IMG/VR virus record: IMGVR_UViG_2684622582_000006
Span: 1-23,577 of that record
Length of the DNA stretch: 23,577 nt
Source: a virus
Taxonomy: Duplodnaviria; Heunggongvirae; Uroviricota; Caudoviricetes
Reading direction: 5' to 3' (one strand)
Positions 450 to 963 of this stretch are shown in pieces. The position numbers and the translations under genes were made by a program. Below the pieces are notes generated by a model. That model was not told the origin of the DNA, did no database searches, and worked only from the letters and a program-made list of their open reading frames with translations. How positions within the stretch are numbered: the first letter of the stretch is position 1; each line of letters begins with the position of its first letter.

Positions 450-581
450 TCACCCCAGCAGCCCCGACAAAGACAACATCATCCAGCCCATGGAAAGAAA
501 AAGAGCAACCAGCATTAGTGAAAATGAAATGCCGACGATTACACAGAGGATCTTCGCCAGCGTTATGAGTTTGTCTGACAT
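450..581 (-). CDS. small hydrophobic protein (43 aa), unknown function
   Basis: Internal ATG of track ORF 450..671 gives MSDKLITLAKILCVIVGISFSLMLVALFLSMGWMMLSLSGLLG; preceded by strong SD (GAAGGGAGGATTAAGC-ATG). Single predicted TM helix. Confidence 0.35.
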   Translation of the reverse strand: MSDKLITLAKILCVIVGISFSLMLVALFLSMGWMMLSLSGLLG

Positions 582-595
582 GCTTAATCCTCCCT

Positions 596-742
596 TCACG
601 ATTTCAACGCAATGACCAGTTTTGCCAGCCCATACAGCATCGGAGACACAGCAATACCGACCGCCACCCACTTAATGGCAAAAGCCACCGCTCCACTGAT
701 GTCATCGGTTACCGGAGCTTTCAATTCAAGGCCGTTTTTCAT
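596..742 (-). CDS. small hydrophobic protein (48 aa), unknown function
   Basis: Internal ATG of track ORF 596..886 gives MKNGLELKAPVTDDISGAVAFAIKWVAVGIAVSPMLYGLAKLVIALKS; SD GAGG about 8 nt upstream; lies immediately downstream of the hairpin terminator. Confidence 0.35.
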   Translation of the reverse strand: MKNGLELKAPVTDDISGAVAFAIKWVAVGIAVSPMLYGLAKLVIALKS

Positions 743-835
743 AGTCAACCTCAACAGAATTCGTTTATACTTACTCACGGAAAATCTCCATGTCCATGCT
801 GTAAGTTTCCCCCTTGACTTACTCAAGACCGGAAA

Positions 836-876
836 ACACAAAAACCCCGACTGTTCGCAGCAATCGGGGTTTTTAC
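836..876. terminator. bidirectional rho-independent terminator-like hairpin between endolysin and downstream small ORFs
   Basis: AAAAACCCCGA-ctgttcgcagcaa-TCGGGGTTTTT: 6-bp GC-rich stem flanked by A-run and T-run, so a U-tract follows the hairpin on either strand. Confidence 0.5.
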
Positions 877-963
877 TTTTATTCACTTACAATTCGCCAG
901 TTTGCAGGATTTCGTGTTTTCCGCCCATGTTGGCCAACGTCATTTTTCAGAGAAATATTCTGC

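Follow-up and report, generated by a model that had tools for sequence, protein, structure and literature searches.

The lysis region of the lambdoid prophage sequence IMGVR_UViG_2684622582_000006 (positions 1 to 23,577; "the window" hereafter denotes this whole 23,577-nucleotide stretch) carries an insert between the genes for its endolysin (R) and its spanin (Rz), consisting of a hairpin terminator and two small open reading frames, ORF1 and ORF2. Both ORFs are protein-coding genes under purifying selection, and ORF1 is a portable cassette that uses two permissive slots of the late operon. The explanation that we favor, while holding it only tentatively, is that a portable small-gene insertion occupies the R-Rz gap of a lambdoid late operon, and that its products would be late-made membrane peptides modifying lysis, with ORF1 held down by an antisense RNA. 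The initial annotation of this DNA had described a hairpin and two small ORFs between R and Rz; all of these elements were recovered at the same coordinates on the minus strand, in the order S, R, hairpin, ORF1, ORF2, Rz/Rz1. The elements of the insert are as follows (aa, amino acids; SD, Shine-Dalgarno sequence).

833 to 884, both strands: bidirectional intrinsic terminator, stem 874 to 864 / 850 to 840, with a U-run on each side.
828 to 814 (feature 807 to 828), minus strand: small stem-loop CTTGA-GTAAG-TCAAG, from sequence, alignment, and folds.
815 to 807, minus strand: ancestral SD AAGGGGGAA, partly occluded by the small stem-loop at 828 to 814.
771 to 797, minus strand: leader ORF of 8 codons (MDMEIFRE, then stop), its end overlapping the ORF1 GTG, from the alignment.
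596 to 778, minus strand: long form of ORF1, 60 aa, starting at GTG 778 (phrog_1115, E = 8.2e-41).
ATG 742, minus strand: start of the nested form of ORF1, 48 aa, with its own GAGG upstream.
588 to 596, minus strand: ORF2 SD AAGGGAGGA, read from the sequence, overlapping the ORF1 stop codon.
450 to 581, minus strand: ORF2, 43 aa (MSDKLITLAKILCVIVGISFSLMLVALFLSMGWMMLSLSGLLG), strongly hydrophobic, single-pass (phrog_4906, E = 1.8e-22).
742 to 771, plus strand: promoter-like site (TAGTCA, 18 bases, TATACT) opposite the genes and within ORF1 codons 3-12.
778 to 884, plus strand: predicted cis-antisense RNA of ~105 nucleotides (nt) that would pair with the leader, SD, and start codon of ORF1 and terminate at the hairpin.

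Selection acts on both frames. Among distinct nucleotide sequences from related loci, the ratio of nonsynonymous to synonymous substitution rates (dN/dS) was 0.18 for ORF1 (0.12 over its helix core) and 0.40 for ORF2 (0.20 over residues 1-24), and variable sites at codon positions 1, 2, and 3 numbered 13, 9, and 34 in ORF1 and 14, 11, and 21 in ORF2. Most other frames gave dN/dS values of 0.8-4.5, the exception being the antisense frame that shares the wobble position (0.28 and 0.48). More than 100 homologue clusters with intact frames were found for each ORF, the ORF1 homologues coming from E. coli, Salmonella, and E. marmotae and the 120 ORF2 homologues from E. coli only. Conservation of the frames among related prophages, on which the initial annotation had made its case depend, is clear from both the dN/dS values and these intact homologues. 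ORF1 residues 1-60 aligned to positions 8-67 of 67 in phrog_1115 (PHROG 4493 and 3246 were also matched), and ORF2 residues 1-43 to positions 7-49 of 49 in phrog_4906; the PHROG families matched carry no function annotation. The identical E. coli proteins, WP_072134056.1 and WP_053294350.1, are encoded by adjacent genes, in RefSeq the insert encodes two proteins (60 and 43 aa) annotated as hypothetical, and the only database names for either peptide are "hypothetical" or "membrane protein." Neither had a match in Pfam, NCBIfam, or PADLOC (in PADLOC none at E up to 10): no Pfam holin was matched by ORF1, and the best hit of ORF2, DUF3930 (E = 0.079), fell below the cut-off.

These results bear most directly on the notion that the ORFs arose by chance or are decaying remnants and that the hairpin just ends R transcription. 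Short ORFs are frequent here (44 with 20 aa or more fall at least partly in the first 2.5 kb), and Pfam and NCBIfam matches are lacking, yet the frame-specific selection, the PHROG family matches, the hundreds of homologues with intact frames, the carriage by plaque-forming phages, and a hairpin that travels with ORF1 rather than with R leave this notion next to no credence. Among the rival explanations, it is the only one effectively excluded. The idea that the insert is a remnant of another moron likewise fell away, as both ORFs are intact and under selection.

ORF1 is most likely a 60-aa protein read from GTG 778, with the 48-aa form as a nested second start; the initial annotation had given SD-preceded ORFs of 48 and 43 aa, of which the SDs and the length of ORF2 stood. 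The RefSeq annotation (Prokaryotic Genome Annotation Pipeline) and all relatives favor the 60-aa form, which is probably real because its N-terminal extension is retained as protein in divergent relatives (QYKRILMRLTMKNG, KYKRFFLRLSIMKG, LYRKFFRMRLSMKDG). The common E. coli variant has a strong SD (AAGGGAGAA) and, after it, an ATG 12 codons upstream of the equivalent of ATG 742, giving the N terminus M-x-KYKRILLRLT-MKNG.... In the window, a 27-base stretch that is absent from the common variant lies between the ancestral SD and the ORF1 start; it includes the 8-codon leader ORF, and the GTG 778 start has an SD of its own (GGAG, 789 to 786). Equivalent 8-codon leaders ending in GTGA on the ORF1 start are present in Salmonella locus L089, phage GER2, and Sakai prophage Sp4. 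The nested ATG keeps GAGG or GGAGG at the proper distance even where the residues change from LRLT to VEAN, a pattern consistent with both starts being in use, as they may be. The upstream limit of 886 in the initial annotation corresponds to the GTG of a mechanically called 96-aa ORF that reads through the hairpin.

The two proteins differ in how firmly they would sit in a membrane. ORF2 residues 11-29 form a firm membrane segment (Hessa dG -3.8 kcal/mol), and its N terminus is probably cytoplasmic. ORF1 was modeled by AlphaFold2 as a helix at residues 3-14, a linker, and a helix at residues 23-59 (predicted local distance difference test ~90 over residues 31-60); the N-terminal helix is basic, and the hydrophobic stretch of the C-terminal helix, whose core is AFAIKWVAVGIAVSPMLYGLAKLVIALKS, contains two lysines and is marginal on the Hessa scale (+3.4 kcal/mol). 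The description of each ORF as essentially a single transmembrane helix thus fits ORF2 but not ORF1, with its two helices and marginal, lysine-containing stretch. An exhaustive HMMER search with an ORF1 profile yielded only 17 clusters at 50% identity, nearly all of 47-66 aa and, one chance match aside, all of 20-90 aa, so the family is small and unconnected to any larger one. A scan of species-representative genomes gave one weak match only; the family is therefore strain-level accessory DNA.

That the segment is inserted relative to the canonical R-Rz arrangement, as had been proposed, is apparent from K-12 Qin, in which rrrQ overlaps rzpQ by 4 bases with nothing between them. The R-hairpin-ORF1-ORF2-Rz stretch was recovered in 988 of 5,426 complete E. 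coli genomes, O157:H7 strains included, with 83-88% identity over everything between the R end and the Rz start. Plaque-forming phages carry it as well, namely PhiR12_1 to PhiR12_5 and PhiR5_2 (recorded hosts: K-12 MG1655, E. coli C, or ECOR13), and it is therefore not confined to dead prophages. The insert has a G+C content of 0.467, versus 0.53-0.535 for S, R, and Rz, and homology to Shiga toxin (Stx) phages of the ant type ends at ~878, just before the hairpin (blastn, 89% to L005, L006, and L007, over window positions 993 to 878 only).

ORF1 relatives occur between R and Rz beside three different lysis sets: the E. coli S21/R21 type, the Salmonella HP1 type, and that of GER2 and Sakai Sp4. 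In Salmonella L089, ORF1 stands alone between an HP1-type holin with a 161-aa lysozyme (Ala/Gly-rich N terminus) and Rz, and the copy that abuts Rz in GER2 and Sakai Sp4 is 45% identical and ends in RWW; in phiSTEC1575, a relative follows an M15 endolysin. The ORF1-ORF2 pair was not located in Sakai, several prophages of which have related forms (ECs_1094, ECs_1966). In Sp4 (L179, NC_002695.2 1184145-1186375), a block of holin, R, ECs_1094, Rz, and pchA lies next to IS629; its strand, opposite to that of the Sp4 tRNA genes and ECs_1088, and its place beside IS629 suggest an inversion of the block. In Salmonella and metagenome loci, ORF1 relatives also follow tail-fiber genes, far from lysis genes. 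Tandem ORF1 paralogues exist in three loci (L095 2856-3168, L096 165-528, and L175 325-737): the pair in L095, from Salmonella, lies downstream of tail-fiber genes and adjoins a DUF1353 gene, and the copies in L175 each have a separate upstream hairpin. The ORF1-family gene of Salmonella L093 is flanked by terminators like a free-standing unit.

RNAfold gave the hairpin -20.8 kcal/mol in the direction of the genes and -18.2 kcal/mol in antisense, with an A-run before it and a U-run after it in both orientations. It was missed by a simple terminator scan, probably because the scan takes only loops of 3-8. Since every ORF1 relative examined, tail-fiber sites included, has a hairpin 30-65 bases ahead of it, the hairpin belongs to ORF1 and not to R; the stems differ in sequence (CCCCGA, CGCCCG, GCCCC). 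The internal terminator of the initial annotation is thus confirmed as a strong bidirectional hairpin, but as a part of the portable ORF1 cassette rather than the terminator of R. The flanking features are the following.

4046 to 3387, minus strand: Q-type antiterminator gene, upstream of the lysis cassette on the same strand.
1505 to 1717, minus strand: S21-type class II holin (pinholin), 71 aa, starting MKSM (PF04971, E = 1.1e-35).
964 to 1497, minus strand: signal-arrest-release (SAR) endolysin R, 177 aa (PF00959, E = 6.2e-24; phrog_7), with the Ala/Gly-rich N-terminal segment LSAVVLALIAAGASA.
887 to 963, minus strand: R-distal spacer, common to ant-type Stx phages.
1 to 438, minus strand: Rz i-spanin, ATG at 438, continuing past the window start (PF03245, E = 5.9e-39; phrog_13, E = 3.3e-68).
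233 to 42, minus strand: Rz1 o-spanin, nested within Rz, with a lipobox-like VSAC.

A position-weight scan found no sense promoter above the background median in the leaders of 10 copies. One weak sense-strand promoter match is present within window positions 380-1100, and the distance from hairpin to start is too short for a promoter. No terminator is present between ORF2 and Rz; the terminator lies upstream of the ORFs instead. The absence of a detected sense promoter, the good upstream terminator, and the Q gene on the same strand together suggest that ORF1, ORF2, and Rz are expressed only from the Q-antiterminated late transcript.

This pattern matters for the possibility that ORF1 and ORF2 are lysogenic-conversion genes, made by the resting prophage and protecting its host, for example by blocking the entry of superinfecting DNA at the inner membrane, as HK97 gp15 and T4 Imm do against superinfecting phages. 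Much about the ORF1 family would suit such a role: it is mobile and found in two classic moron slots (R-Rz and downstream of tail-fiber genes), its G+C content is below that of its flanks, the Salmonella L093 gene sits between terminators as if free-standing, and tandem paralogues exist. The scanned leaders, however, lack a sense promoter, the terminator is upstream rather than downstream, ORF2 and Rz are gapless and so behave as one late translation unit, and PADLOC gave no match; we therefore regard conversion as unlikely.

The link between ORF2 and Rz is close. The ORF2 SD ends six bases upstream of its ATG, and the ORF2 stop lies within GGGGTGA, 11 bases before the Rz ATG. In 20 distinct contexts, ORF2 always has a good SD (identical in 11, SD-like in the remainder) and always ends in GGGGTGA, and the next start follows within 0-13 bases, being that of Rz or that of a truncated ORF1 using the GTG of GTGA. 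Stx phages and Sakai Sp10 have R, ant, ORF2 (ECs_1966), Rz, and PhiR5_1 has R, ant, a 31-aa ORF, ORF2, truncated ORF1, Rz; in ant-type phages, the long start of ORF2 overlaps the ant stop. Loci L006 (2504-2755), L052, and L068 have ORF2 followed by a truncated 38-aa ORF1, or ORF1, ORF2, and a truncated ORF1. These genes behave as modules that have been shuffled, and GGGGTGA has the look of a recombination joint.

Such packing raises the question of whether ORF2 is mainly a translated leader that brings ribosomes to Rz after the insertion broke the ancestral R-Rz start/stop overlap, its peptide having little function. The invariably strong SD, the GGGGTGA end 0-13 bases before the next start, and the overlap of the long start with the ant stop in ant-type phages would all fit, and coupling of a small ORF to the following gene is known for orf45 and anrP of Gifsy-1 (PMC4825925). 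The clear purifying selection on residues 1-24 (dN/dS 0.20) argues that the peptide itself matters, and GER2, Sakai Sp4, and Salmonella L089 have an R-Rz insertion without ORF2; a mere leader is accordingly quite improbable. Other ideas about ORF2 were rejected. It is not a lipoprotein, as the residues preceding Cys13 are I-L, with no lipobox; against its being a left-behind N terminus of Rz, a by-eye comparison with that of the window's Rz showed a likeness limited to hydrophobicity; and an apparent kinship with ORF1 (92% probability in a profile comparison) was an artifact of natural ORF2::ORF1 read-through fusions in the ORF1 alignment. ORF1/ORF2 fusions, by read-through or frameshift, also account for several database "proteins" of 58-92 aa.

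On the opposite strand, the sole promoter-like site (742 to 771) is placed so that its predicted RNA would start at ~778, exactly the ORF1 start codon, and run across the ORF1 translation start to the hairpin. The site had a position-weight matrix score of 8.06 here and of 10.7 in L093; compared with the best scores of random 150-base windows, 8.06 ranks near the 90th percentile. The K-Y codons of the ORF1 extension, read in reverse complement, give its -10 element, which is found at the same position in 7 of the 8 lineages scanned, with scores at the 90th-98th percentile of random windows; the -35 element varies (TAGTCA, TGGTCA, TTGGCC, TTGCCT), and in GER2, phiSTEC1575, and Sakai Sp4, TGGACA-18-TATACT was read by eye at the same place. 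The 33-base block that holds the site is modular, and in two comparisons its conservation exceeds that of the coding part downstream (85% versus 45% and 91% versus 47%). The predicted RNA folds here at -29.7 kcal/mol (z = -3.9), and those of eight lineages, of 77-110 nt (77-108 nt in the seven other than this one), each fold into a 5' stem-loop plus terminator. We therefore predict, from these sequence features, a plus-strand antisense RNA over the ORF1 translation start.

Several observations weigh against this antisense step. The -35 element in the window (TAGTCA) is weak, and the commonest E. coli variant has TACACT rather than TATACT. Conservation of the putative promoter is inseparable from that of the K-Y codons that it overlaps. 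A survey of Hfq crosslinking in strain Sakai listed no peak at the Sp4 copy of ORF1, and no Rfam family reached its gathering score in the ORF region. The subthreshold Rfam matches (sar, RefA9, His leader, and ohsC [18 bits]) were driven by terminator shape; the sar RNA (RF00262), rejected as a candidate, scored 24.3 bits against a threshold of 43, mostly through terminator shape, and had no match in relatives L001 and L006. Among small RNAs of enterohemorrhagic E. coli (EHEC), EcOnc11 lies downstream of Rz in Sp10 and EcOnc24 between tail genes (Tree et al. 2014).

Were the antisense RNA real, the locus could also be a type I toxin-antitoxin-like module, in which ORF1, or ORF1 with ORF2, would be a membrane-damaging toxin silenced in the lysogen by that RNA as its antitoxin. 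The peptides are suitably small and hydrophobic (ORF2 with 43 aa and a dG of -3.8, ORF1 with 48 or 60 aa), the position-conserved promoter-like site and the bidirectional terminator would define a structured RNA of 77-110 nt over SD and start codon, and the same prophage already has sok and RalA, so that such modules are at home here. Set against this are the absence of a promoter for a toxin mRNA, of any Rfam antitoxin or Pfam toxin family match, and of a listed Hfq-bound RNA at the Sakai Sp4 copy, together with an ORF1 helix that is only marginally hydrophobic (+3.4 kcal/mol). We judge a module of this kind to be decidedly unlikely.

In the lysis-modifier explanation that we prefer, the insert would comprise two parts: an ORF1 cassette, made up of the bidirectional terminator, a short leader with its 8-codon upstream ORF, and the 60-aa protein with its nested 48-aa start; and ORF2, the strongly hydrophobic 43-aa peptide with a strong SD packed between ORF1 and Rz. 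Both would be made solely from the Q-antiterminated late transcript, along with S, R, and Rz, and translation of the long form of ORF1 would probably be held down by a short antisense RNA ending at the same hairpin. As membrane peptides made late, they may act at the inner membrane as nonessential lysis modifiers; possible targets are the spanin or the trigger of the pinholin and SAR endolysin, which depends on membrane potential. In the phage 21 system, pinholin triggering and SAR-endolysin release depend on membrane potential. We chose a role in lysis because the genes are apparently cotranscribed and tightly packed with Rz, because divergent ORF1 copies recur in the R-Rz slot beside different lysis sets, and because a small membrane peptide could shift the potential on which pinholin and SAR release depend. 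A precedent is HokW, a small membrane toxin of the Stx2 prophage Sp5 that is made on induction and aids phage release (PMC8621323).

A number of points count against a role in lysis. The chief one is that, given the copies after tail-fiber genes, the position in the lysis cassette may mean only a permissive slot. Phage lambda and K-12 Qin lyse without these peptides, so any role would be accessory. Neither ORF has holin hallmarks, with no Pfam holin match and no charged C-terminal tail (ORF1 ends ...ALKS and ORF2 ...SGLLG). The failure to find a sense promoter is the result of a consensus scan only, and searches of the literature by peptide string, WP accession, and ECs locus tag found no publication on either peptide.

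A broader version of this explanation would make the ORF1 unit a self-contained late-only switch, combining the bidirectional terminator, the antisense RNA, the coupled 8-codon leader, the nested 60/48-aa starts, and a helix whose marginal hydrophobicity could let it move into or out of the membrane. With ORF2 included, the unit would represent either an undescribed class of lysis-timing regulators of pinholin/SAR-endolysin phages or a new prophage family of type I toxin-antitoxin systems, the toxin being released only by antitermination; we think it improbable that so much will prove correct. The sequences themselves are already known, as hypothetical proteins and PHROG families, and so are the insertion slot and the occurrence of small accessory membrane genes in the late operons of phages. 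What deserves experiment is the architecture of the cassette and the antisense RNA predicted for it. This apparently unstudied insert is part of a lysis cassette in about one-fifth of complete E. coli genomes, those of O157:H7 among them. Should its peptides alter when lysis occurs, phage burst would be affected, as would the release of prophage products, including Shiga toxin where it is encoded, and small accessory players would be added to the pinholin/SAR-endolysin pathway. If the antisense RNA is real, it would provide a compact, portable means of silencing a membrane peptide until late transcription. Failing both, the insert simply adds two conserved phage genes without an assigned role to those of a known insertion slot.

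Other features of the window lie outside the insert. Downstream of the Q gene come a 239-aa ORF, three tRNA genes, and then the lysis cassette. The 239-aa ORF (2426-3142, minus strand), between the Q-type gene and the tRNA cluster, is hydrophobic and had no Pfam match; the slot that it occupies is the stx position of Shiga toxin phages. The spacer that separates the holin gene from the three tRNA genes (1750-1980) contains, on the sense strand, a G+C-rich hairpin that has a T-run (1791-1806, minus strand), and no Rfam family matched there. In EHEC prophages, a comparable region downstream of pR' has the convergent small RNAs AgvB and AsxR. A RalA antitoxin RNA (21843-22021, minus strand) was matched over its full length, with 216.7 bits against a gathering score of 170; RalA is the antitoxin RNA of the RalR/RalA type I system in rac-like prophages. 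A sok antitoxin RNA (6969-7150, minus strand; 65.7 bits against a gathering score of 59) indicates that a hok/sok-type locus adjoins the methylase gene in the early region of the prophage. That gene, for a C-5 cytosine methylase (PF00145), forms with an NgoMIV-type restriction enzyme gene (PF09015, E = 8e-127) a type II restriction-modification pair inside the prophage (5025-7038, minus strand).

Among known systems, morons are an obvious comparison. These are additional genes set among the conserved late genes of lambdoid phages; bor, which follows Rz, is an example, as is ant of Stx phages, which lies between R and Rz. A textbook moron is expressed from the prophage, having a promoter of its own and a terminator downstream. 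The insert resembles them as extra DNA between genes that are adjacent elsewhere (rrrQ/rzpQ in K-12 Qin), in its G+C content below that of the flanks, in sharing the slot of ant in Stx phages, and in the second permissive site after tail-fiber genes, yet it has no sense promoter detectable by consensus scan, and its terminator lies upstream. Lysis regulators, such as the antiholins lambda S107, S21-71, and T4 RI and the Mu releasin gp25, are likewise small membrane proteins of lysis cassettes and are made late, as we infer here. The two nested starts of ORF1 are reminiscent of holin dual-start motifs, and its weakly hydrophobic helix is reminiscent of SAR-type segments. Unlike these regulators, ORF1 and ORF2 show no sequence similarity to them and lack a charged C-terminal tail, and ORF1 relatives also occur outside lysis cassettes.

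Comparisons with regulated small genes of prophages are similarly mixed. The IsrK-orf45-anrP unit of Gifsy-1, in which terminator read-through and small-ORF translation control the downstream gene by coupling (PMC4825925), is also a prophage unit with a terminator and a small ORF ahead of a gene. It differs in lying directly after a Q-like gene rather than between R and Rz, and it shares no sequence match with the insert, in which Rfam IsrK likewise found no match. The hokW-sokW locus of the Stx2 prophage Sp5 also has a small membrane peptide in a Shiga toxin-type prophage and an antisense RNA of the kind predicted here over the translation start; unlike it and other type I loci, the insert encodes neither Hok, Ldr, Ibs, nor TisB and has no Rfam antitoxin match and no toxin promoter. 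In P22, the sar RNA exerts antisense control of ant translation. The Rfam sar score of 24.3 bits versus 43 in the window and the lack of a match in relatives make this an analogy rather than family membership. The likeness is one of layout: the predicted short RNA would start in the 5' end of the gene, extend over the SD, and stop at a hairpin shortly upstream of it, in a slot that holds ant itself in related phages.

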